Shown here: positions 1,899-48,377 of the stretch, in pieces
Layout of the letters: each line of letters starts with the position of its first letter
How positions within the stretch are numbered: position 1 is the stretch's first letter
Sequence record: OR544954
DNA length: 64,000 nucleotides
Origin: Escherichia phage vB_EcoM_EP32a
Direction: 5' to 3' (one strand)
The notes under the pieces: generated by a model
Databases searched by the model: none
What the model saw: the letters and a program-made list of their open reading frames with translations, nothing else
What the model was told of the DNA's origin: nothing
Program-made: the position numbers and the translations under genes

Positions 1899-3925
1899 TG
1901 TGAAATAGGCTCCAAATCTATAGTTAAGTACTGAGGACGTAAGTCATTTTCGAATACGATTAAAGAACCATCCTTTGTAAAAATAATATCATCTGCAGGG
2001 TCGGAATAAAGTTCAATTGTTTGAACTTCAAAACGGTCTGAAGTGAGGTCAATTTTAGCAATGTTCCAATAAATCGAATCGGCAGGATAATTCACTTCAC
2101 CAATTGAATAGTATTTGTTTCGTCCGTCAGTAACAGTAAGTTTATTAAAATCATTACCTGTATAAGGTTGTATATTTTCGTTTTCAACAACATCACCGTC
2201 TGCAAATGGACCAATAATAACTTGACCTATGCCACGATCATTACGGTCAGAAGATACTATGCGAACACCGTATTTAATAGTTTCGTTTGCATTTTCTGGA
2301 TTAGGTCTGTGTGAATCAAACGAGAATATATTAGATTCCATCGATCTATCTTTAATCTGATTATTGTATTTAATACCGGCCTCAGGCGTTTTATAGAAGT
2401 TTTGTACTTCGCGAACCATTTGAATAGTAGCTGAAGAACCAATAATAGAAATATCTGCATCATCGACATAAGTTAGCATTTTAGATTTTGCAAACGATGA
2501 GTTAAAAATTTCTACATCTTCAATATAATAACGGTCTATTTTATTAATAATCTGCCCTTCAAGATATTGTTCTGATTCCTGGAGTTTATTCAAAGCGTAC
2601 GTAACTTTGATATTCATTTTGATAAACAAATAATCAGGCGAAATAACAACAGGTGTAATAGTCCCTAAGTTATAATCATTTAAATAGTTTTTGATATCAT
2701 CACGTTGAACAGAAGTCAAATACAACCCAGACTTAGGTTTAGCAGCAATAAATGCGTACCCTGGTTTAGATGAATCTGTGAATGTTTGAACCGCTTGAAT
2801 AATAGAACCAAACCGCTCAGAGACGAATGTGTCATAGTCGGAAGCTGTTACACAACGTTGTTGAGTTTCGCGTTTAATTGTGCCTAATTCGCGGATACGT
2901 TCAATATCTTCAGGGTCACCACCACCATCGGCCCCGACAAAGTCCGGGTTGTTGCTAGGGTTCTCGTTAATATCGATTACCGTGATATTAGCTAATGTAT
3001 CGGCATAAGAAAATCCTACAGCTCCGTTAGCATCTGCACCATTAGTAGAAATATACTCAATTACGATTTTAGAACCCTGAACAGGTTTAAGGCCACCAAT
3101 ATAGTTAGATGTTAACGCGCCTTCTGATGTGTTAATAGAGATTTCGCCTTCGCCAAAATAAAATTCGGTATTCCCATCAACTGTTTCACGCATATAATAG
3201 ATTGTTGACGTAGAACCAGCGTGAACCATCGACTTACGAGTCCAGTTAATCCATTCTGCTCCATCAACGTATAACTTAACCAAATTACGGTCAATATTCT
3301 TATCACGAATAATGATAGGTTTTAATTTATCAAAGGTTAATTCAGTGCGAACAATACGTCCTTGAGCTAATCGAAGACGTGGAAAATATTGGTTATTTTT
3401 GTCTTTAACTACAATGACATCTTCAGTAGAAACAAAGTTATACGGGTTAACAGAAGTATCTTTAGCGTATGCTAAGAAACGAGTGCCACGTGGAATGGTG
3501 ATATAGTTTCTATTTAATGCATCCGTACATGTGAGCATAATTTCTGTTTGTGCTGCCGATTTAGATGAAGGCAGATATCCGTTATCTTGAGCCGCTTGTA
3601 CAACAGAACTACGCAAGTTTGCAGTACGCATAAAACTTTCATACACTGCACTATTACTGAACTGTTGGATATAAAGAGTGTTATATGCTAAAAGGTCGCA
3701 CAATACGTTTAAGCGTGAACCTTCAAAATCATAATCAAGAAATTCATTCTGTCCATGGAGCCATTCGATAATGTTTTGTTTGATTTCGGCAAATGTGCCC
3801 CCGATAAAAATCTCGGGAATAGCATTCGCTGTTCGGGCTAATTGATAATTTACAGGAGTGTTTGCCATTTTAATTCCTATTTTATAAAGACTTTTGACGA
3901 GGCCTGAGAAACAGTATCCCCGCAT
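1895..3925 (-). CDS. 6: baseplate wedge protein gp6
   Basis: 676-aa ORF starting [25 protein letters not shown]4 gp6-like; position between 5.4 and 7. Confidence 0.9.
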
Positions 3926-4691: not shown

Positions 4692-6425
4692 TTACCCAAT
4701 ATCAATACGAGATCCGTCAACAGTGTATTGTCCTGAAGCTACTGAGCTCATTGTAGACATTGTTTCTGCCCAATCCCCTGCAACAGTCATATCAACATTA
4801 CCGTTAACAGTCCATTTAACGTTTCCGTTGACGGTGTAATCATGATTCCCTTCGACCTGAGTTTTAGCATCACCTTTAACAAGAATATCTGCATTTCCGT
4901 CAACAACTATTTTGATATTCCCCTTAACGTAAAGAGTTCCATCACCTTCAACAGTTTTAGTTTGATTACCACGAATAAAGATTGTGTCATTGCCGTCTAT
5001 TTGATGGAGGCGGTCTGCCATGTTATAATATATTTCATTAGCGCCAACGTTAACAAGCTTATCGCCAGAAATCAAGAAGTTCCCATCACCATTAGTGATG
5101 TCATAAAGGTCTTCTACAGTTTTACGAGTACGACGCCCGGACGGAGAAACTTCCTCATATGACCCTGTTGGATGAACTAAGCGATAACGTTCATTACCTG
5201 GAGTATCGTCAAATTCTTGGATATGACCACTTTCTGTTTCCATAGCATGAACGTATGGATACTCACCACGATAACTTGATTCTGGTTCTTTAAAAAGGAT
5301 GCGTGAATCTAATGGAACAGGAGGACCAGCCGGGTCTTCTGAATCGGTATTTCTAGTAACTAAATCGGCACCAACTCCTGGTGAAGGAGGTGTTTTAACA
5401 GGAACACCGTATGATTCCATATTACCTGTTAAAATAATTGTTGTTACACGTGAAGCGCGTCCTTTAGTCTGTTGGAACCATAATGAATCGCGCCCAGATT
5501 TGTATGCAGTTTTCCAATCACCTTCGGCCATTGCTTTAAGCATAGTATTGAATTTTGCTACACCACCAACGCCCATTTGGAAGCACATGTTTTCTAATGC
5601 CATTTGGCGAGATCTGTTCATTTTAGCATAAACAGGACCCACTTTAGAATTAGAACGAATGTCTTTCTGCATCTTAGCAAGGTCTTTCTCAAATAACGCT
5701 GTTGCTTCTTCTAATGTAATAGTCCCGGGATTTCCTGTTACTTCACGCCCTACTTGATCAGATAACAATTTATTAATTCGAGACATATCTCGGGTCTTTT
5801 CCATTACGATAAGGTGTCCAATACCTACTGTAGGATACCCGAGATGGTCCCAATACACTTTATCACGAAGACCTTCGTCACGACGTAACATTTCTGTTAT
5901 TGTAAAATTAGGGTCATCATCTTCTGGAATATTTGCTAAATCTGTATCATCTGGGTTTATACCATAATCCAAGTTGTTATCTTGAATTACGTTAGAGTTC
6001 GAATAATAACCAGCTTCACCACCTTGGTTTAATACGTTCGTATCATTACCTAAACGTCGTGGATATTGACCTGTAGGGTCGGAAAAACCTTCGAGTCTAT
6101 TAGGCTTTTCGCGTACAATTCCACCGTATGTACCGAGTACAATACCGTTTGTTTTCCATTTGTCTAAGAAATGACCATATACTCTAGTTCCTTCAACAGG
6201 ACCTGTAACAGAACCACCAATACCTGACATTGACGCAGACGTAATAGGTTGAATAACAGTCATCCACGGAAGTTTTTCTGTAGGAATACCTTGTACGTCA
6301 CCTTGTGCTCTCTGTGCCGGATGAAGACCAACGACTCGAACTCGAACTCGCCCTTGTTTTAATGGGTCCATTCTGTCCTCGACAACACCAACGAACCAAT
6401 TAAGGCTACTGCTAATCATTTCCAT
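4692..6425 (-). CDS. 5: baseplate hub / tail lysozyme gp5
   Basis: 577 aa; internal lysozyme-like segment (GYPTVGIGHL); C-terminal beta-helix repeats (VxGNxxxTVxGN). Confidence 0.92.
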   Translation of the reverse strand: MEMISSSLNWFVGVVEDRMDPLKQGRVRVRVVGLHPAQRAQGDVQGIPTEKLPWMTVIQPITSASMSGIGGSVTGPVEGTRVYGHFLDKWKTNGIVLGTYGGIVREKPNRLEGFSDPTGQYPRRLGNDTNVLNQGGEAGYYSNSNVIQDNNLDYGINPDDTDLANIPEDDDPNFTITEMLRRDEGLRDKVYWDHLGYPTVGIGHLIVMEKTRDMSRINKLLSDQVGREVTGNPGTITLEEATALFEKDLAKMQKDIRSNSKVGPVYAKMNRSRQMALENMCFQMGVGGVAKFNTMLKAMAEGDWKTAYKSGRDSLWFQQTKGRASRVTTIILTGNMESYGVPVKTPPSPGVGADLVTRNTDSEDPAGPPVPLDSRILFKEPESSYRGEYPYVHAMETESGHIQEFDDTPGNERYRLVHPTGSYEEVSPSGRRTRKTVEDLYDITNGDGNFLISGDKLVNVGANEIYYNMADRLHQIDGNDTIFIRGNQTKTVEGDGTLYVKGNIKIVVDGNADILVKGDAKTQVEGNHDYTVNGNVKWTVNGNVDMTVAGDWAETMSTMSSVASGQYTVDGSRIDIG

Positions 6426-7061: not shown

Positions 7062-7511
7062 ATGGCCTACTCTGGTAAATGGGTCCCAAAAAATTTAAAA
7101 AAATACCGTGGAGACCATACCAAAATAACGTATCGTTCAAACTGGGAAAAATTCTTTTTCGAATGGTTGGATAAAAATCCAGAAATTATTGCATGGGGTA
7201 GTGAAACAGCAGTAATTCCATATTTTTGTAATGCTGAAGGTAAGAAACGTCGATACTATATGGACATATGGATGAAAGATGCATCAGGCCAAGAGTTTTT
7301 TGTAGAAATAAAACCAAAGAAAGAAACTCAACCACCTATTAAGCCCGTAAATCTTACGACCGCAGCAAAGAAACGTTATATGAATGAAATCTACACGTGG
7401 TCTGTGAACTGTGACAAATGGAAAGCTGCTTCAGCTGTTGCTGAAAAGAGAAATATAAAATTTCGAGTTCTAACCGAAGATGGACTTAGGAAACTCGGAT
7501 ACAAGGGGTAA
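7062..7511 (+). CDS. 4: head completion protein gp4
   Basis: [24 protein letters not shown]..., 149 aa, AGGAGG SD; start moved from ORF-track 6918 to ATG 7062. Confidence 0.88.
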
Positions 7512-7513
7512 TT

Positions 7514-8335
7514 ATGAGCATATTCCAAATTATATCTGAAGGCGTACAAGCCCCTAAGATTGCTCAGTCTATGAATGAAAGAAAATGGATTGAGATAGGA
7601 TTAGAATACAAGAAAGCTAAAGAGAAAGGAATCACTGCAAAAGCATTTGCAGAATCAAAAGGAATAAAATACTCGTCGTTTACATCTGCAATGTCTAGAT
7701 ATGCATCATCTATTAAGACTGCACAGAAAATTGAAACGCTTGAATCTAAACCTAAAAATAAACTCAATAAGCAAGAACGTCAACTTCTGATGATAAACTC
7801 GTTTCGCAGTTCAATACGAGAAAAGATTAGAAATGAAGGCGCAGCAGTAAACAACAAATCATCTAAGTGGTTTGTTGAAACAATTAAGAAAAGTGTAAAA
7901 GGTCATAAAGTAGTCAAACCTACGCCAGGCAAAATTTATACTTACGTTTATGATGCTAAACATAAAGATACTCTGCCATACTGGGACCGATATCCTTTGA
8001 TTATTTATTTAGGATTAGGTAAACATAATTTGATGTATGGGTTAAACTTGCACTATATCCCACCTAAAGCGCGTCAACAGTTTCTTGAAGAATTGCTGAA
8101 GCAATATGCTAGCACAACTACTATTACTAATAACACAAAGTTGAAAATAGACTGGAGTAAGGTGAAAGGATTTCAAGGTGCTGACAAAATGATTAAAGCA
8201 TACTTGCCAGGCCACATTAGAGGAACAATAACAGAAATAGCTCCTAAAGACTGGGCTAACATAATCATGTTACCTACTCAGCAGTTTATGTCAAAAGGAA
8301 AACGTTTCTCTGCGAATACTGTTTGGAAATCTTAA
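7514..8335 (+). CDS. 2: DNA end protector protein gp2
   Basis: 273 aa, position and size match T4 gp2. Confidence 0.8.
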
Positions 8336-8437: not shown

Positions 8438-9022
8438 ATGACTCGTCCAGCGAGACAGATTTTTAACCAAACAAATATAACAAACTTTGTTGTGGATATC
8501 CCAGATAGTACACGAACTTCAGGTTTTGTGCTCAATGCCCAAACGGCTCCATTGCCAGGTGTGAGAATTCCTGTTGTTGAAACTGTGACAGGCACAATGG
8601 GGCTAGGACGTGCAATGCGTGCAGGCACCACATTTGAATATGACCCTTTTATTGTACGATTTATAGTTGATGAAGACATGACGTCCTGGATGAACATGTA
8701 TAAATGGATGCTCAGCACTAATAACTATATAACCGGCCATAATACAGCCCACTCTGATGGTCCTGAGTTTGTTACTTTGCACATTTTAAACAACAATAAG
8801 ACCGAAGTAGTTTTGACGGCAAATTTCTATAAACCATGGATTTCTGATTTGAGTGAAATTGAATTTAGTTACACTGAAGACTCCGACCCTGCCGTTACGT
8901 GCGTAGCAACTATTCATTACGCTTATATGACGATAGAAAAAGATGGTGAAGTCATTGTATCTCAACAACCACGTCAAGCGGTCGAATCTAAATCCATTTC
9001 TAGACACCCTTCCTTGCGTTAA
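8438..9022 (+). CDS. 3: tail completion / sheath stabiliser protein gp3
   Basis: ORF between genes 2 and 1 as in T4; start at ATG 8438 after GAGG. Confidence 0.7.
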   Translation: MTRPARQIFNQTNITNFVVDIPDSTRTSGFVLNAQTAPLPGVRIPVVETVTGTMGLGRAMRAGTTFEYDPFIVRFIVDEDMTSWMNMYKWMLSTNNYITGHNTAHSDGPEFVTLHILNNNKTEVVLTANFYKPWISDLSEIEFSYTEDSDPAVTCVATIHYAYMTIEKDGEVIVSQQPRQAVESKSISRHPSLR

Positions 9023-9075
9023 TCGCTTCTAGCTCCGTATGTTATAATCACTCATAAATTATATGAGGAAAACCT

Positions 9076-9810
9076 ATGGAGCTAATCTTTTTAAGCGGCA
9101 TCAAACGTAGTGGTAAAGACACCACTGCTGATTACATCAATTCAAACTTTAAATCCGTAAAATATCAATTGGCATATCCAATTAAAGACGCTCTAGCAAT
9201 AGCCTGGGGACGTAGGCATGCTGAAAATCCTGATGTATTCACAGAGTTGAAATACGAATACTTTGAAGGCATTGGATACGACCGTGAAACACCATTAAAT
9301 CTCAATAAGTTGGATGTTATTGAATTATTGGAAGAAGCGCTAATTTATTTGCAAAGCCAATATTTACCAATTAATAATGTTAAAGTATTATCATCGTTAG
9401 AAGGTGGATATTCGTATCTAGATATTAAACCATATGAAGCCCTGCGTGAAGCTATAAATAATATCAACGACACATGGTCAATCCGCCGTCTTATGCAAGC
9501 CCTCGGTACGGATGTTGTCGTTAATTTATTTGACCGTATGTATTGGGTTAAACTTTTTGCATTAAACTATATGGATTATATTGGAAGTGATTTCGATTAC
9601 TATGTCGTAACCGATACACGTCAAGTCCATGAAATGGAAACCGCTAGAGCGATGGGTGCTACAGTTATTCATGTGGTTCGCTCTGGTACGGAATCCACCG
9701 ATAAACATATTACAGAAGCTGGGTTGCCTATTGAAGAAGGCGATTTAGTTATTACAAACGACGGCTCTTTAGAAGAGCTTTATTCTAAAATTGAAACAAT
9801 CTTAAGGTAA
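9076..9810 (+). CDS. 1: deoxynucleoside monophosphate kinase gp1
   Basis: 244 aa, P-loop GIKRSGKDTTAD, similar to recalled T4 gp1. Confidence 0.88.
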   Translation: MELIFLSGIKRSGKDTTADYINSNFKSVKYQLAYPIKDALAIAWGRRHAENPDVFTELKYEYFEGIGYDRETPLNLNKLDVIELLEEALIYLQSQYLPINNVKVLSSLEGGYSYLDIKPYEALREAINNINDTWSIRRLMQALGTDVVVNLFDRMYWVKLFALNYMDYIGSDFDYYVVTDTRQVHEMETARAMGATVIHVVRSGTESTDKHITEAGLPIEEGDLVITNDGSLEELYSKIETILR

Positions 9811-11485: not shown

Positions 11486-11552
11486 TTCTTTACGCTAAAG
11501 TAAAATCTGTCGAGAACGGATATGAAAGCGACTAGTCGATGACTATGGTATT

Positions 11553-12342: not shown

Positions 12343-12416
12343 AAGTTATTTAGGCCCTGTAGCTCAATGGTTAGCAGCAGTCCCCTCATAAGGGAAAGGT
12401 TACCAGTTCGAATCTG
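12343..12416 (+). tRNA. tRNA with CAU anticodon (Met or Ile2), no encoded CCA
   Basis: Anticodon stem TCCC/GGGA with loop CTCATAA; T-arm ACCAG-TTCGAAT-CTGGT; acceptor pairing is imperfect. Confidence 0.55.
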
Positions 12417-12432
12417 GTCTGGGTCATATATT

Positions 12433-12509
<77 letters not shown>

Positions 12510-18789: not shown

Positions 18790-19347
18790 GTGGTTTTGCT
18801 CACGCGATTAAAAATGACCAGATTAAAAACGAGCCTATGTTCTTCAACTGTAGTATTTGATTCACGAGTCCATATGCTGATGCCTGGTTGGTATCCTGCT
18901 ATTCCAGGTTATCACCATGACGATGTACCACGCCCGGATATTCCAGTTGGTCAACACTTTATTACTGCAGGACAACCTGACTATGACAATCCTCGCTATT
19001 TGTCTGAACACATTCTTGGTCTTGTTAACGCTGATGTGTGTCCTACTCATTTTGCAACAGGAACTGCAGAGTTCAGTCAGATTCCTGATGGCGAACTTAT
19101 CTATCGCCAGTGGCACAAAGAAGTCCTCGAAAAAATCGAAAAAGGTGAACTAGAGAAATGGGAAGCTCCGGACCGTACTCTTCTTCAGTTTGATTGGCAA
19201 ACATGGCACACTGGTTCTCGTGCAATTAGTAATGGATGGCGTTGGTTCGGACGTGTATCTCGTAATACAGACCGAGTTAAAAAGATTACCAATGAAATTC
19301 GTGTCAATGCTCAAGTTTATCTGGAATTCCCTATGGAAGGCTGGTAA
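18790..19347 (+). CDS. hypothetical protein (start uncertain; possible frameshifted N-terminus)
   Basis: ORF in a +1 frame relative to the short ORF 18747-18860 that has the good start context. Confidence 0.4.
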   Translation: MVLLTRLKMTRLKTSLCSSTVVFDSRVHMLMPGWYPAIPGYHHDDVPRPDIPVGQHFITAGQPDYDNPRYLSEHILGLVNADVCPTHFATGTAEFSQIPDGELIYRQWHKEVLEKIEKGELEKWEAPDRTLLQFDWQTWHTGSRAISNGWRWFGRVSRNTDRVKKITNEIRVNAQVYLEFPMEGW

Positions 19348-19838
19348 TGATTAACAAAACATATTGGTCTAATATTGACGACGGCAATGAAGGTATTTCA
19401 TACTATTCAGTAGATTGGACAGGATGTCCATCCTACTTAGTGAAACGTATTTGCCAAGAATTTAAAATCGACCAGCCAGCAGGTATTATCGTGAACAGAT
19501 ACATTAATGGATATCAACCTATCGATGAAGTAATACGAACAACTCAAGCTGAGCTTGAAAAGTTTTTCAATAAGTGCCAATGGATAACAGGATGGATTAT
19601 ATTTGTACCGTCTATATGGTTTTTCAGTACTAAGGTGAGTTCTTTCGGTTTTGTTGATATTATTGCTATCTTATTAGCATCTACTATCGTAAGTATTATT
19701 GGCGGTATAATTGGTGGAGGTACTGTAGGCATCATTATTAATCTTATTAAAAGTAGTTTACAAGAACATAAAGACAAGATAAAAGCCAAGAATAATGAAG
19801 TTGAACGTTTTATTACCGAATGCAGGAATTTGAGATGA
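19347..19838 (+). CDS. membrane protein, C-terminal RFITECR motif (family member 4)
   Basis: Hydrophobic core with GGIIGGG, then ...VERFITECRNLR. Confidence 0.55.
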   Translation: MINKTYWSNIDDGNEGISYYSVDWTGCPSYLVKRICQEFKIDQPAGIIVNRYINGYQPIDEVIRTTQAELEKFFNKCQWITGWIIFVPSIWFFSTKVSSFGFVDIIAILLASTIVSIIGGIIGGGTVGIIINLIKSSLQEHKDKIKAKNNEVERFITECRNLR

Positions 19839-20071
19839 GTATAGCAATTTACATTAAATCAGAATCATGTGATAGTTATCTGTACACATACGATAAAGAT
19901 GTGTCAGAAGAAAAAATCAAAGACGACCTTAATACGGATCTTGATATGTTCTGTCCTATTGCAGATTACAAACTTGCGGTCTCTAATAGTGAAAGTCCAT
20001 CTAAAGAAACGCGCATTGAAGAATTTATGTCCGAATTAATGGCCAAATCATGGGACCGAGATGATGAGTAA
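19835..20071 (+). CDS. hypothetical protein
   Basis: 78 aa. Confidence 0.45.
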   Translation: MSIAIYIKSESCDSYLYTYDKDVSEEKIKDDLNTDLDMFCPIADYKLAVSNSESPSKETRIEEFMSELMAKSWDRDDE

Positions 20072-20519
20072 GAAAAATAAAGTGAAAGAACTATCAGCCG
20101 GTATTATTTTCCTTACCGAAGATAAAGAATTATTCATGGGGCGTGTAACTGGTTCTCGTCCTAAAGGTTCTTTAGCTCATCGCTGGGATATTCCTAAAGG
20201 ACGTGTCGAGCCCGGTGAATCTCCTATTGAAGCCGCTATTCGCGAATGCGAAGAAGAAACTGGGTTTACACAATATGACCCTGCCTTCCTGAAAGACCTA
20301 GGTGAACATCATTACTCAGACAATAAGAATATTCATCTGTTCCTATATACCATCCCTGTAGAGCACGAGCAATTCAGAAACAGTGCTTGTAATTCCTATC
20401 ATACATTCCCAGACGGACGACAGATTCCTGAATTTGATGCGTTCGCTTTAATTAAACCTTCTCAATGGGAATATGTAATGGGCAAATCATTATATAAGGT
20501 GCTCACTACCCTCCTATAA
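20061..20519 (+). CDS. nudE: Nudix hydrolase NudE (e.1)
   Basis: Nudix box GRVEPGESPIEAAIRECEEETGF; directly upstream of e. Confidence 0.85.
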   Translation: MMSKKNKVKELSAGIIFLTEDKELFMGRVTGSRPKGSLAHRWDIPKGRVEPGESPIEAAIRECEEETGFTQYDPAFLKDLGEHHYSDNKNIHLFLYTIPVEHEQFRNSACNSYHTFPDGRQIPEFDAFALIKPSQWEYVMGKSLYKVLTTLL

Positions 20520-20528
20520 GTAATAAAT

Positions 20529-20550
20529 ACCTCCTATAAACGTGGGAGGT
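20529..20550 (+). promoter_or_regulatory. hairpin sequestering the lysozyme SD
   Basis: ACCTCC ... GGAGGT stem includes the GGAGG SD 4 nt before the e ATG; cf. known T4 gene e control. Confidence 0.45.
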
Positions 20551-20553
20551 ATT

Positions 20554-21042
20554 ATGAATATATTTGAAATGCTTCGTAATGACGAAGGTCTTAGACTGAC
20601 TTTATACAAAGACACTGAAGGCTTTTGGACGATTGGCATAGGCCATTTAGTAACAAAGAACCCATCTTTAGCCGTAGCTAAAGCTGAACTTGACAGAATG
20701 ATCGGACGTAAATGCAACGGTACAATTACCCTTGATGAGGCTGAAAAGCTATTTAATGAAGACGTTGATAAAGCTGTTCGCGGAATCTTGGGTAATGCTA
20801 AACTTAAACCGGTATATGATTCTTTAGATGCAGTTCGTCGATGTGCATTGGTCAATATGGTCTTCCAAATGGGTGTAACAGGCGTCGCCGGTTTTACTAA
20901 TTCTCTTCGTATGCTTCAACAGAAACGTTGGGACGAGGCGGCAGTAAATCTAGCCCAATCTAAATGGTACCGTCAGACACCTAATCGCGCGAAACGCGTA
21001 ATCTCAACATTTAAAACAGGAACTTGGAAAGCGTATATATGA
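20554..21042 (+). CDS. e: endolysin (T4 lysozyme e)
   Basis: [32 protein letters not shown]..., near-identical to recalled T4 lysozyme. Confidence 0.95.
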
Positions 21043-21320
21043 AAACATATAGTGAATTTTTATCAGAATCTATTCTTAACGAAGCTACTGACACATTTGC
21101 AACTAAGCTAGGTGCAGCTTTGGTTGAAGCTGAAAGTCTATTAGCACGTATTTCTGAACTTGCTAGTAAGATAGATACTCGCAAATTTGAACGTACCAGC
21201 GATATCGCTAAGCTTGAAGCCTTGTTGCGTATGTGTGATAAACCGGAAGAAATCGCTAAGAACGGCTCGCTGATGAAACAACGTCTTGAAAAATATATTT
21301 CAGGCGCTTCAGAAAAATAG
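21039..21320 (+). CDS. internal protein with capsid-targeting leader (ipII/ipIII position)
   Basis: [10 protein letters not shown]... leader; ATGA overlap with e stop. Confidence 0.7.
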
Positions 21321-21352
21321 TGTTTACTTCCTCCAAGGGTTTTGATACTATA
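21321..21352 (+). promoter_or_regulatory. T4-type early promoter
   Basis: GTTTAC ... TACTAT. Confidence 0.45.
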
Positions 21353-21378
21353 CATTCATCAACTACTTGGAGGAAATT

Positions 21379-21792
21379 ATGACTCGTATCAATTTAACAC
21401 TTGTTTCTGAACTGACCGACCAACATCTTATGGCTGAGTATCGTGAATTACCACGCGTATTTGGTGCAGTCCGTAAACATGTTCAAAACGGTAAACGTGT
21501 AAAGGATTTTAAAATCTCTCCAACATTTATCTTAGGCACAGGTCACGTAACATTCTTTTACGACAAACTCGAATTTTTACGTTTACGTCAAATCGAGCTA
21601 ATCGCTGAATGCTTGAAACGTGGTTTCAAAATCAAGGACACGACTGTTCAGGATATTTCCGACATCCCTGCCGAATTTCGTAATAATTACGTCCCGTCCG
21701 AAGCGTCCATTGCGATAAGTCAAGCACGCTTAGATGAAAAAATTGCTCAACGTCCGACTTGGTACAAATACTATGGTAAATCAATTTACTAA
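21379..21792 (+). CDS. denV: endonuclease V (pyrimidine-dimer DNA glycosylase) DenV
   Basis: [34 protein letters not shown]..., near-identical to recalled T4 DenV. Confidence 0.93.
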
Positions 21793-21799
21793 GGAAAAA

Positions 21800-22060
21800 A
21801 TGAAAATGTATCAAGAATTTATCATTGAAGCAGATGCCAAAGACCCTAAATTTAAAGTTAAAGCTTTCATTGGTGATGCGGAAGACTTTGGCTCATTAAA
21901 ACGTAATGGGTATTCTTTCTTAGGTGGTGATGGTAAAGAAATCAACACCTATGCAAAACGTAGTGAAATTGCTTATGTTGTAGTAAGTCCTAAAGTAGAT
22001 GTTGACGATATTGGATACGATTTTAACAACTTCGGAATTATTTCTGGCGGTAAAGCTTAA
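21800..22060 (+). CDS. internal protein with capsid-targeting leader
   Basis: MKMYQEFIIEA leader; 86 aa. Confidence 0.65.
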   Translation: MKMYQEFIIEADAKDPKFKVKAFIGDAEDFGSLKRNGYSFLGGDGKEINTYAKRSEIAYVVVSPKVDVDDIGYDFNNFGIISGGKA

Positions 22061-22061
22061 A

Positions 22062-22095
22062 TTGTTTACGCTTAAGTATTAATATGGTATAATTA
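22062..22095 (+). promoter_or_regulatory. T4-type early promoter
   Basis: GTTTAC, 18-bp spacer, TATAAT. Confidence 0.5.
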
Positions 22096-22123
22096 CTCTA
22101 TCAAAACAAACAAGGAAACAAAA

Positions 22124-22195
22124 ATGAAAACATATAAAGAATTTATCGCCGATCCAACCTGTAATAAGGTCGAGCCCAAGTGCGGTAATGGGTTT
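22124..22195 (+). pseudogene. remnant or minimal internal-protein gene (leader + 13 aa, in-frame TAG)
   Basis: MKTYKEFIADPTCNKVEPKCGNGFT then TAG; same frame stays open to 22260. Confidence 0.4.
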
Positions 22196-22257
22196 ACATA
22201 GCGAGTCGAAGGACCTAACATGTGCCACGGAATGGCCCAAACCTTAAGAGAAATAAT

Positions 22258-22797
22258 ATGAGAACATTTTTAACTGGACCTTATCTATCCCTGATGAATG
22301 CTTTTACACACCATTCTGATGCTAGAGTAGAAGAAATTTGTAAGAACGGTTATGTCCCGCCATTTGAAGAAGTACTCAAGCAGTACTGTACACTTCGTTT
22401 AGACGGCGGCCGACAATCCGGTAAATAAATTGCTGTGACTAACTTTGCTGCTAATTGGCTGTATGATGGTGGAACAGTTATTGTTCTTTCTAATACTTCA
22501 GCTTATGCTAAAATTTCTGCTGGCAACATTAAAAAAGAATTTTCTCGTTATTCTAGCGATGATATTCGATTCCGTTTATTTACTGATTCTGTTCGTAGTT
22601 TTATTGGCAATGAAGGTTCTAAATTCCGTGGATTAACGCTTTCTCGTATTCTGTATATAATTGACGAGCCTATTAAAGCTCCTGATATGGATAAGATTTA
22701 CAATGTACATATTAAAACAGTCCAACACTGTTGCAAAAGCAAATATTGCATCGGCGGTAATGCTCGTCCTCAATTTTTTGTGATTGGAATGCAATGA
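22258..22797 (+). pseudogene. P-loop NTPase interrupted by in-frame TAA inside Walker A
   Basis: ...LDGGRQSGK-TAA-IAVTNF... same frame across 22426-22428; Walker B-like ILYIIDEP downstream. Confidence 0.5.
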
Positions 22798-23695: not shown

Positions 23696-23815
23696 AGACA
23701 TCAAAGGCTACAAGCCGCATACCGATGATAAAATCAGTAAAGTGAACGCTATTAAAGATGCAGAAGTTCGTGTCGTGCAGTATTTCGACCTGAGGAAAAA
23801 TACTAATGGCTAGAG

Positions 23816-36364: not shown

Positions 36365-36620
36365 AGTGTACGGGTATGACTCTACTATTCATAAATGCAT
36401 TTATTGCGATAATGCGAAACGATTGCTGACTGTTAAGAAACAGCCGTTCGAATTCATTAATGTTATGCCAGAAAAAGGTGTTTTTGATGATGAGAAAATT
36501 GCTGAGCTTCTGACTAAGCTCGGGCGTGAAACAAAAGTCGGATTGACAATGCCACAGGTATTTGCTCCTGATGGAACTTTGATCGGCGGATTTGACCAAC
36601 TGCGAGAATATTTTAAATGA
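36357..36620 (+). CDS. nrdC: glutaredoxin/thioredoxin NrdC
   Basis: MFKVYGYDSTIHKCIYCDNAKRLL..., CxxC, matches recalled T4 NrdC. Confidence 0.9.
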   Translation: MFKVYGYDSTIHKCIYCDNAKRLLTVKKQPFEFINVMPEKGVFDDEKIAELLTKLGRETKVGLTMPQVFAPDGTLIGGFDQLREYFK

Positions 36621-36640
36621 GACCTGCGAGAATATTTTAA

Positions 36641-36997
36641 ATGACATATTCATTAAATCTTAAAGATTTCCAAGATGTATACGAAGTTTGTGCCAATGAA
36701 CTTGGTCCTGATGCTCCAACTATTATTGAAGTTTTAAATGTGCTCCCTTCATCATTAGCTTACGAAGCCAAATCATGGGGTTGGAACGACACTGTCGTTC
36801 GTGATGACCTTTACGTCCTGATGAACGATATGATGGTTAAAAAGGCAGAACCGGTTGCACCAATTGTTACCATTACCGTTGAAGAATATAATCGCCTGCA
36901 AGCCATTGAAGAGCTTCTGTGGAACATTGAATGTGACCTGCCATCCGGACTAGAATCCTGGATTGATTATGAAGAGCTCAATAAACTCCGGGGTTAA
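36641..36997 (+). CDS. hypothetical acidic protein
   Basis: 118 aa; its ATG lies inside the second copy of a 21-bp repeat. Confidence 0.55.
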   Translation: MTYSLNLKDFQDVYEVCANELGPDAPTIIEVLNVLPSSLAYEAKSWGWNDTVVRDDLYVLMNDMMVKKAEPVAPIVTITVEEYNRLQAIEELLWNIECDLPSGLESWIDYEELNKLRG

Positions 36998-45281: not shown

Positions 45282-46301
45282 ATGAAAATTTTGCACTTAG
45301 GCGACTTCCATATCGGAGTCAAACAAGATGACCCATGGGTTCAAGATATTCAACGTGATGGTATTCGTCAAGCAATTGAATACTCTAAGAAACACGGGAT
45401 TAAAACTTGGATTCAGTACGGTGATTGGTTTGACGTCCGTAAAGCAATAACACATCGTACGATGGAATTCAATCGTGAAATCGTTGATATGATTTCTAAA
45501 GCAGGCATTCACGTTCATGTCACGATAGGAAACCATGACATGGCGTTTAAGAATACAATAACACCTAACACTGTTTCTGAATTGTTAACTCAATTTGAAA
45601 ACTTTACTATTTACGAACATCCAACTACTGTAGATTTTGACGGATGTCTGATTGATATCGTTCCATGGATGTGTGAAGAAAATACGGGTGAAATCTTAGA
45701 GCACATCAAGACTTCTTCTGCGGCGTATTGTGTTGGGCACTGGGAATTAAATGGCTTCTATTTCTATAAAGGAATGAAGTCTCATGGGCTTGAACCTGAT
45801 TTCTTAAAGACCTATAAACAAGTCTGGTCTGGCCACTTCCACACAATCTCTGAAGCTGCTAACGTCAAATATATTGGGACACCATGGACCCTTACTGCAG
45901 GCGATGAGAACGACCCGCGCGGATTCTGGGTATTTGACACTGATGTTGAACGTATGGAATTTATTCCTAATGAAACAACATGGCATCGACGAATCACTTA
46001 TCCGTTTAAAGGCAAAATCAATTATTCTGATTATACTAATCTAGCCGTACGTGTTATAGTATCAGAAATTGATTCAGAGTTGACTAAGTTTGAATCTGAA
46101 CTTGAAAAAGTAGTTCACTCTCTTCGTATGGTTTCTAAAGTTGATAACAGTGTTGAATCTGATGATGACCAGGAAATCGAGATTAAATCACTTCAAGATA
46201 TCATTAAAGAATATATTGACGCGATTCCAGATATCTCAGACGAAGACAGAGAAGCGCTGGTTAAATATTCTAACGAACTTTATATTGAGGCAACACAATG
46301 A
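45282..46301 (+). CDS. 47: recombination endonuclease subunit gp47 (Mre11-like)
   Basis: 339 aa; phosphoesterase motifs (LHLGDFH, GNHD). Confidence 0.9.
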   Translation: MKILHLGDFHIGVKQDDPWVQDIQRDGIRQAIEYSKKHGIKTWIQYGDWFDVRKAITHRTMEFNREIVDMISKAGIHVHVTIGNHDMAFKNTITPNTVSELLTQFENFTIYEHPTTVDFDGCLIDIVPWMCEENTGEILEHIKTSSAAYCVGHWELNGFYFYKGMKSHGLEPDFLKTYKQVWSGHFHTISEAANVKYIGTPWTLTAGDENDPRGFWVFDTDVERMEFIPNETTWHRRITYPFKGKINYSDYTNLAVRVIVSEIDSELTKFESELEKVVHSLRMVSKVDNSVESDDDQEIEIKSLQDIIKEYIDAIPDISDEDREALVKYSNELYIEATQ

Positions 46302-46555
46302 CTTTAGATGAATTTAACAATGCCGGGCTCAGCCTTGAAGTTGAAATGGACGTTAAAGATGATGATGGATTCGAGAACACTATCAAGTATTGGATTGAGC
46401 CATTACGCGTTGAAGGCAATGAAGTTAAAGCAGTTCATGTCTGCACCGACTGGGCTATTGAATTTAGCTTTAATATAATGGACAACGATACTCCTGGCTC
46501 TATTCTTAAAATGGCCGAAGCGTGTATCGAGGATGCGTATAATGACGAAGACTGA
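46298..46555 (+). CDS. hypothetical acidic protein
   Basis: 85 aa. Confidence 0.5.
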   Translation: MTLDEFNNAGLSLEVEMDVKDDDGFENTIKYWIEPLRVEGNEVKAVHVCTDWAIEFSFNIMDNDTPGSILKMAEACIEDAYNDED

Positions 46556-46781
46556 TTATGAAATCCATCGTCATGAATTTAGTATTGGTGACGGTTATAT
46601 TGGTATCGTTGAATGGACCGAGAATTACGAGGAATCAACTCCTCGTTTCTTTGGAACAATGTATGTTACCTGTGAGTACGCACCAGGTGTTGTTATGTAT
46701 GCAGAACTAGATGAATATTTTGCTGATAGAGATGACATGTTAAAATATGTAGAGGACTTCATTCGAAGAGAATACATATGA
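46542..46781 (+). CDS. hypothetical protein
   Basis: MTKTDYEIHRHEF... Confidence 0.5.
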   Translation: MTKTDYEIHRHEFSIGDGYIGIVEWTENYEESTPRFFGTMYVTCEYAPGVVMYAELDEYFADRDDMLKYVEDFIRREYI

Positions 46782-48377
46782 AATCATTTAAATTAAATCG
46801 TGTTCGTTATCAAAACATCATGTCGGTAGGTGGGAATCCTATTGATATCCAATTAGATAAAGTCCAAAAGACATTAATCACTGGTAAAAATGGCGGTGGT
46901 AAATCTACGATGTTAGAAGCCATTACTTTCGGACTTTTCGGTAAACCATTTCGTGATGTTAAGAAAGGACAAATCATTAACAGCACGAATAAGAAAGAGC
47001 TCTTAGTTGAGCTTTGGATGGAATTCGATGGTAAAAAATACTTCATTAAACGTGGCCAAAAGCCCAATATTTTCGAAATCTCCGTTGACGGTGTTCGTCT
47101 TGATGAATCTGCCAGCAGTCGCGACTTCCAAGAAGAATTTGAACGTAGCATCGGAATGTCATACGCGTCTTTTAAACAAATCGTTGTGCTTGGGACGGCA
47201 GGGTATACCCCTTTCATGGCTCTTAGCACCCCTGCTCGTAGAAAACTTGTCGAAGACCTTTTAGAAGTCGGCACACTCGCTGAAATGGATAAAATCAATA
47301 AGTCTCAAGTTCGAGAACTTAATTCCCAGGGACAAGTTCTCGATGCCAAGAAAGATGGTATTATCCAACAAATTAAGATTTATAACGAGAATATCGAACG
47401 TCAAAAGAAATTATCTGGTGATAATGTAGCGCGTCTACAGAATATGTATGACGACCTAGCCAAAGAAGCTCGTTCATTAAAAGCAGAAATCGAAGAAGCT
47501 AATGAGCGACTACTTAATATCGTTCTTGACGAAGACCCTACTGAGGCATTCAACAAGATAGGACAAGAAGCATTCTTGATTAAATCTAAAATTGACTCAT
47601 ATAACAAAGTTATTAAGATGTATCATGATGGCGGTACATGTCCTACTTGTGCATCACAGTTGCACCAGGGTGATCCTATTGTCTCTAAGATTACCGATAA
47701 GCTTCACGAATGTAATCACTCATTCGAGCAACTTACATGTCACAGAGATAATCTGAGTGTCCTAGTGGACGAATATAGAGCTAATGTTAAGACTAAACAG
47801 GACCTTGCATCTGATATTCGCACCAAGAAACAAGCAATGATTGCCACTATTGATAAAGCTAAGAAAGTTAAAGCTGCAATAGAGCAAGCCTCAGCAGAAT
47901 TTATCGACCATGCCGATGAGATAGCTTTGCTTCAAAAAGAACTTGATAAAATCATTAAAACAAAATCAGATATCGTTCTTGAAAAATACCATCGTGGTAT
48001 TATCACAGATATGTTAAAAGATTCTGGTATTAAAGGTGCTATCATTAAAAAATATGTGCCTCTGTTCAACAAGCAGATTAACCATTATCTTAAAATCATG
48101 GAAGCTGATTACGTGTTTTCTATTGATGAAGAATTCAATGAATCTATAAAATCACGTGGTCGTGAAGATTTTAGTTATGCTTCATTTAGTCAAGGTGAAA
48201 AAGCGCGTATCGATATCGCATTGTTGTTTACATGGCGAGATATTGCTGAAAAGGTCTCTGGCGTTAGAATCAACAAACGTGTTCATTATTTGTCATAGAG
48301 ACCATGACCCACAAGCTTATGGACAACATCTTCAAATGAGCAAAGTTGGACGATTTACTGTAATGACTGTTTCATAA
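46778..48377 (+). pseudogene. 46: recombination endonuclease subunit gp46 (Rad50/SbcC-like), apparently disrupted
   Basis: Frame A has Walker A GKNGGGKST and signature SFSQGEKARIDIAL but stops at 48298; H-loop-like NVFIICHRDHD continues in the +1 frame to 48377; no Walker B between them. Confidence 0.55.

Follow-up and report, generated by a model that had tools for sequence, protein, structure and literature searches.

Is gene 46 of Escherichia phage vB_EcoM_EP32a inactivated in the phage itself, or only in the sequence deposited for it? In T4, mutants of genes 46 and 47 are conditional lethals with a DNA-arrest phenotype. The products of the two genes form the Mre11/Rad50 resection complex of T4, which has been described as critical for end resection (PMC3016280). 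A preliminary description of a 64,000-nt stretch of record OR544954 (the window hereafter) proposed that gene 46 is inactivated by an internal deletion and a frameshift that together remove the Walker B motif.

The window corresponds to nt 96,001–160,000 of the record: ARAGORN detects a 74-nt tRNA-Met at 12353–12426 and a 77-nt tRNA-Arg at 12433–12509, offset by exactly 96,000 nt from the two tRNAs published for EP32a (Met, 74 nt, 108,353–108,426; Arg, 77 nt, 108,433–108,509; PMC11657129, Table 5). APCEc01, which the same publication names as the closest relative of EP32a, is among the best genome matches to the window.

Gene 46 of the deposited sequence is frameshifted and lacks the Walker B motif

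The region around gene 46 is 98% identical to the RB69-group phages (Mosigvirus) and displays the T-even gene order 47, 46.2, 46.1, 46, 45.2, rpbA, 45, 44. Upstream of gene 46, and all on the + strand, lie three intact genes: gene 47, encoding the Mre11/SbcD-type nuclease partner (45282..46301, 339 aa, from the ORF list), and the small genes 46.2 (46298..46555, from the ORF list and the RB69 and PHB12 annotations) and 46.1 (46542..46781 by homology with RB69, the listed ORF starting at 46533). The gene 46 ORF (46778..48298, + strand, 506 aa) was assigned to a Rad50/SbcC-type ATPase from the ORF list, from alignment with RB69 and T4 gp46, and from Pfam. It encodes 499 native residues followed by seven frameshifted ones (KRVHYLS) and a stop codon. 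The Pfam matches comprise AAA_23, AAA_29 and ABC_tran, which hit the N-terminal part, together with SMC_N and Rad50_zn_hook; the latter match (residues 268–311) scores 16.4 bits, below the cut-off, and is equally weak in the intact gp46 of RB69.

Both motifs that the preliminary description had recognized in this ORF could be located: the Walker A motif GKNGGGKST (aa 36–44; 46883–46909, + strand) and the ABC signature SQGEK (aa 471–475; 48188–48202, + strand). The FSQGEK segment (aa 470–475) aligns, via RB69 gp46, with LSGGER of Thermotoga Rad50 (3qf7). A CPTC zinc hook is also present (aa 288–291; 47639–47650, + strand). The ORF does end at 48298 as described, but the signature lies 31 codons before this end (24 native and 7 frameshifted), not about 10. 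The C-terminal remnant of the gene is found, by translation and alignment, in the +1 frame of the same strand: 48276..48377 encodes NVFIICHRDHDPQAYGQHLQMSKVGRFTVMTVS, which includes the H-loop and the native C-terminus (NVFIICHRDHD...TVMTVS), with the native stop at 48375–48377. This agrees with the preliminary description, and it leaves the H-loop histidine (NVFIICH) out of frame with the rest of gp46, in the +1 frame only.

By contrast, neither a Walker B motif nor a D-loop is encoded in any frame of gene 46 or elsewhere in the 64-kb window. The locus measures 1600 nt, that is, 83 nt less than T4 gene 46 (1683 nt), for which a deficit of about 80 nt had been estimated, and 89 nt less than the Mosigvirus orthologue (1689 nt), the comparison that matches the lesion. 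It is thus confirmed that a frameshifted gene 46 devoid of Walker B is present in the deposited sequence, and the deletion is not a chance feature.

An 89-nt block is missing, and no repeat flanks it

We aligned the locus with its counterparts in RB69, PHB12, APCEc01, O157 typing phage 3, DCP548 and T4. In all these DNA alignments, including the comparison with T4 and RB69 suggested at the outset, the window shows a single clean 89-nt gap between 48273 and 48274 (+ strand). The block lost corresponds to residues T500–A529 of RB69 gp46 (TLIMDEVMDSATDSEGIKAISTILNSLTDA), which comprise the Walker B motif (LIMDE), the D-loop and the linker to the H-loop; this segment aligns with the Walker B/D-loop FFIDEGFSSLD of Thermotoga Rad50 (3qf7). 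The sequence at this site reads LIMDE-VMD in RB69 and LILDE-VFD in APCEc01 and T4. The possibility that reference gp46 proteins also lack a Walker B here, envisaged in the preliminary description, therefore does not hold.

The 89-nt block was searched for elsewhere in the window and was not found. Nor is there a direct repeat of at least 7 nt at the deletion endpoints in either of the two types of parent sequence described below, the alignments allowing an overlap of 2–3 nt at most. Slippage or repeat-mediated deletion is consequently unsupported, and we rejected the latter as the origin of the gap.

The gap coincides with a patch that exists as two haplotypes

Mosigvirus gene 46 exists as two haplotypes over exactly the lost stretch: an A-type, carried by RB69, PHB12 and DCP548, and a B-type, carried by APCEc01 and O157 typing phage 3, which is T4-like at the protein level. 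The two types share only 53 of the 89 nt in the block, versus 97.6% identity over the remainder of gene 46. This hypervariable patch spans codons 499–529 (3075–3163 in RB69 and 8991–9079 in APCEc01, in the numbering of the stretches compared). The linker between Walker B and the H-loop is thus a small mosaic patch within the essential ATPase core of Mosigvirus gp46.

Five-way and seven-way alignments and a 13-genome panel show that the flanks of the junction in the window (48258..48301, + strand) are of mixed haplotype. Far to the left of the junction the base is of A-type (RB69-like, GTTAGAAT); the bases adjoining the junction are of B-type (ATCAACA, GTGTTCATTATTT, as in APCEc01 and O157 typing phage 3), and the same holds for the related record EP32b; A-type sequence resumes from CCCACAAGCT onward. 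A cluster of substitutions unique to the window at the junction was also considered and rejected: a single unique base lies nearby (48262), and no error cluster is apparent.

Note that the C-terminal remnant carries an S535C change (TGT, 48291–48293), in which cysteine replaces the conserved serine that precedes the H-loop histidine (ISH motif); the TGT codon is intermediate between the serine codons of the A-type (AGT) and B-type (TCT) haplotypes. In a codon-by-codon comparison, S535C and D85G (codon 85, 47031) both differ from RB69, PHB12 and APCEc01; neither nucleotide position was flagged as unique to the window in the 13-genome panel. These two changes may be true variants or consensus errors.

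The junction is found in one other record, from the same study

We then turned to a phage collection of 50,697 records, which includes OR544955 and OR544956 and does not contain OR544954 itself. A BLAST search with an 80-nt query centred on the junction returned 149 records that cover it. Among the records listed, all but one split at the junction, the 80 nt of the query aligning as two segments spread over 169 nt of record, with 89 extra nt between them; the exception, EP32b (OR544955), is the only one to span the gene 46 junction in one piece. Searches for the junction patterns in IMG/VR and in metagenome and genome contigs gave no related sequence, the two pattern matches obtained in IMG/VR being unrelated sequences that match by chance. 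Among the phage records listed and the contigs searched, the identical junction was found in no independent isolate or assembly, the record from the same study being offset by 1 nt.

In an index of public assemblies, 398 blocks contain a gp47 protein identical to that of the window, and in the contigs shown that encode it the neighbouring gp46 is 562 aa long (10 of 10). An exact-protein look-up of the truncated gp46 ORF in the assembly index, and likewise of the window's gp43, left none on record. Two public Mosigvirus contigs differ around this locus in another way: in one, genes 46 and 45.2 are separated by a 238-aa ORF that runs on the opposite strand (7179–7895 (−) of the stretch compared), and in the other, 46.1 is replaced by a 286-aa ORF (5261–6121 of the stretch compared). 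These extra ORFs may be mobile, endonuclease-type insertions.

The window contains other private mid-gene losses

The window is collinear with APCEc01, from which it differs by the absence of ten blocks. Four of these ten length differences are ordinary polymorphisms, located in regions that also vary in PHB12. The 64-kb window nevertheless contains five private mid-gene losses, including that of gene 46. The other four, at 11530, 18844, 34461 and 42771, were examined in the phage collection with 100-nt queries centred on each junction, and none is shared by any of the listed records (126–151 records covering each query).

The first of the four (11530/11531) is a 19-nt loss that frameshifts a small conserved ORF (APCEc01_154), the 19 nt being kept in the other listed records. 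The second (18844/18849) is an 86-nt loss with a 4-nt filler, CAAC, and frameshifts a conserved 228-aa hypothetical ORF (APCEc01_172); 93 nt are missing at this site in EP32b, and the other listed Mosigvirus records retain the block. The third (34461/34462) removes 105–129 nt in frame from a thioredoxin-like gene of the nrdC region: natural haplotypes such as those of NBG1 and vB_EQ1 match its flanks at 100% identity and have an extra 129 nt, and EP32b lacks 109 nt there, with both endpoints displaced. The fourth (42771/42772) removes 219 nt, nearly an entire conserved 79-aa ORF (APCEc01_231), with no microhomology at the junction; this block is kept in EP32b as well as in the other listed records.

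Three of the five private losses (18844, 34461 and 48273) recur in EP32b with endpoints displaced by 1–11 nt. Such displacement does not fit identity by descent, as alleles inherited from a common ancestor would share their endpoints; independent mutation is not plausible either, as it would not strike three sites in common.

A further site was noted at 36595–36650, where the window has two copies of the 21-nt sequence CTGCGAGAATATTTTAAATGA, 3 nt apart, in place of a 297-nt gene of APCEc01. Because repeat-mediated loss in vivo would leave one copy of the repeat, the retention of both makes this junction look processed, not biological.

The sibling record is defective

EP32a and EP32b come from the same study and the same host strain, J32 (PMC11657129). 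The two sequences are about 97% identical. Like the window, EP32b has the gene 46 deletion with B-type flanks and the losses equivalent to those at 18844 and 34461. Unlike the window, it lacks 88 nt and not 89 in gene 46, at the same place (ATCAACAC/AACGTG versus ATCAACA/AACGTG in the window, the slash marking the junction), and the other two shared losses have endpoints displaced by up to 11 nt. It also has many additional losses, some of them in essential genes. The additional losses include 27 nt in the DNA polymerase gene (20073–22757 of the stretch compared), 76 nt at the boundary of gp4 and gp2, annotated as one 1341-nt CDS (19795–21135 of the stretch compared), and 14 nt in 46.1. The record is 156.7 kb long and has no tRNAs, a 5-kb loss including them. 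The EP32b record is plainly defective.

Two further observations concern this record. The arabinose-5-phosphate isomerase gene of EP32b misses 160 nt, and the name vB_EcoP_EP32B follows the podovirus style ('P') for a genome that is that of a Mosigvirus.

Gene 46 is under purifying selection and a high burst was reported for the phage

Outside the gap, gene 46 of the window differs from that of RB69 by 24 synonymous and 4 nonsynonymous codons; the corresponding figures are 20 and 6 with respect to PHB12, and 30 and 6 with respect to APCEc01. The out-of-frame tail is itself intact and shows no decay. These ratios and the intact tail indicate that the gene has been under strong purifying selection up to the present.

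Growth data are available from a single study: one-step growth of EP32a was reported to yield 392 PFU per cell, the highest burst in the authors' set, with a latent period of 15 min (PMC11657129). The preparation had undergone three rounds of plaque purification, and the genome was assembled de novo with SPAdes (PMC11657129). Judged by what T4 genetics leads one to expect of a gene 46 null, such a burst argues against a real inactivation; the burst-size check proposed in the preliminary description thus turns against its own conclusion.

The gap is probably an artefact of the record

The internal deletion, the frameshift and the absence of Walker B, including from all frames between the signature and the H-loop, are properties of the deposited sequence. 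The further step to a phage without a working gene 46 is unsupported, given the five private losses, the recurrence of three of them at displaced positions in EP32b, and the burst of 392 PFU per cell. We consider the 89-nt gap to be probably an artefact of the assembly or consensus of OR544954 and not a property of the phage; the actual gp46 of EP32a is most likely intact and 562 aa long. This reading is based on the combination of several observations: the source record has multiple private mid-gene losses, some of which recur with displaced endpoints in the sibling assembly; the gene 46 junction is private to EP32a and EP32b, and the latter record is defective; the endpoints have no repeats and lie in a hypervariable patch; the gene shows no decay; and the growth phenotype of EP32a is inconsistent with a gene 46 lesion.

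How such a gap might have arisen can be outlined as follows. Reads or contigs of one haplotype could have been irreconcilable with sequence of the other, whether from a draft, a reference or a co-present strain; the gap might then have been closed during scaffolding, polishing or consensus calling, and this closure would have left the B-type bases near the junction within an otherwise A-type gene. A pure reference-guided consensus on APCEc01, suggested by the collinearity of the two sequences and by the fact that their differences are mostly losses, was rejected as a complete explanation: there are non-reference SNPs beside some of the junctions, the window contains a 39-nt segment (23772–23810) that does not come from APCEc01, and four of the ten length differences are ordinary polymorphisms that lie in regions variable in PHB12 too.

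Several points count against an artefact. The main argument is that de Bruijn assembly of a pure phage would not ordinarily drop 89 nt. Moreover, the assembly is not generally poor, the other core genes of the window (gp43, gp44, gp62, gp45, gp47, NrdD and UvsX) being intact, and some of the length differences with APCEc01 are natural polymorphisms shared with PHB12. Finally, the occurrence of nearly the same junction in two libraries could mean that a real allele was present in both DNA preparations.

A genuine deletion of gene 46, either fixed or confined to a defective sub-population maintained by a helper, is a possible but doubtful alternative. The second form supposes that the deletion is real in part of the DNA population only: defective genomes would coexist with an intact helper in an impure lysate, and the assembler would have reported the deleted path. 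EP32a and EP32b do share the J32 host and the study, flanks of mixed haplotype are what two co-present and recombining Mosigvirus strains would produce, and a helper would account for the normal burst. We nonetheless regard this scenario as quite unlikely, for it has to survive the three reported rounds of plaque purification and requires the same kind of event at three or more loci, with displaced endpoints, in two preparations, and such displacement is what software, more than the inheritance of an allele, typically produces.

That the deletion is real and fixed appears likewise quite unlikely. EP32a would then be a natural gp46 null that still grows, perhaps because this host, or another function of the phage itself, replaces end resection. 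This is what the deposited sequence carries, and the near-identical junction in EP32b, from the same sewage and host background, could represent a locally circulating allele; in addition, headful packaging allows T-even genomes to tolerate sequence loss. Against this stand the conditional lethality of T4 gene 46 and 47 mutants together with the critical role of gp46/gp47 in resection, the burst of 392 PFU per cell, the absence of decay elsewhere in gene 46, the 1-nt offset of the EP32b junction and the displacement of the two other shared losses by up to 11 nt, the fact that no other matching sequence listed or examined has the deletion, and endpoints without a repeat.

A gene 46 that would remain functional through +1 recoding at the junction, or as an ATPase split into two pieces, is excluded in practice and has a negligible probability: the +1 frame does keep an intact C-terminal remnant, which is spanned by a GTG-started ORF (48156..48377), but Pfam gives no match for this 73-aa ORF, the sequence AAC AAA CGT shows no evident slippery or bypass signal, and the rejoined frames would still be devoid of Walker B and D-loop, which are missing from all frames and from the rest of the window.

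What depends on the answer

Propagation without the Walker B motif and D-loop of Rad50, whether by an RB69-like phage from the wild or by defective genomes carried by an intact helper strain, is unlikely. Were this the case, either growth of a Mosigvirus on this O157:H7 host would need no gp46 ATPase activity, or cheater genomes devoid of an essential recombination gene would survive plaque purification. A real lesion would call into question the essentiality of the phage Mre11/Rad50 in RB69-like phages, which the published growth data argue against.

If the gap is an artefact, as we favour, OR544954, and even more so OR544955, carry spurious internal deletions. These would create false pseudogenes in gene 46 and in at least two other ORFs (those with the 19-nt and 86-nt losses), and comparative or phage-therapy safety analyses that use the two records would inherit the errors. 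Private mid-gene gaps that fall on hypervariable haplotype patches and recur, displaced, in sibling assemblies would then be diagnostic of this type of error.

Comparison with known systems

The locus resembles that of T4 and RB69, where gp46, an SbcC-like phage Rad50, is encoded in the same gene order as in the window along with gp47, its Mre11/SbcD partner. Gene 46 of the window is about 98% identical to RB69-group gene 46 at the nucleotide level, its product being 83% identical to T4 gp46 in amino-acid sequence, and it keeps the Walker A motif, the CPTC hook, the SQGEK signature and the adjacent gene 47. Unlike T4 and RB69 gp46, it lacks the code for T500–A529, and its H-loop and C-terminus are out of frame. 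If real, the allele would be a null like the classical amber and deletion mutants of T4 gene 46, and would be expected to prevent both recombination-dependent replication and the breakdown of host DNA (PMC3016280; established T4 genetics). Whereas T4 gene 46 mutants are kept on suppressor hosts, EP32a was recovered and propagated on wild hosts, its reported burst being 392 PFU per cell.
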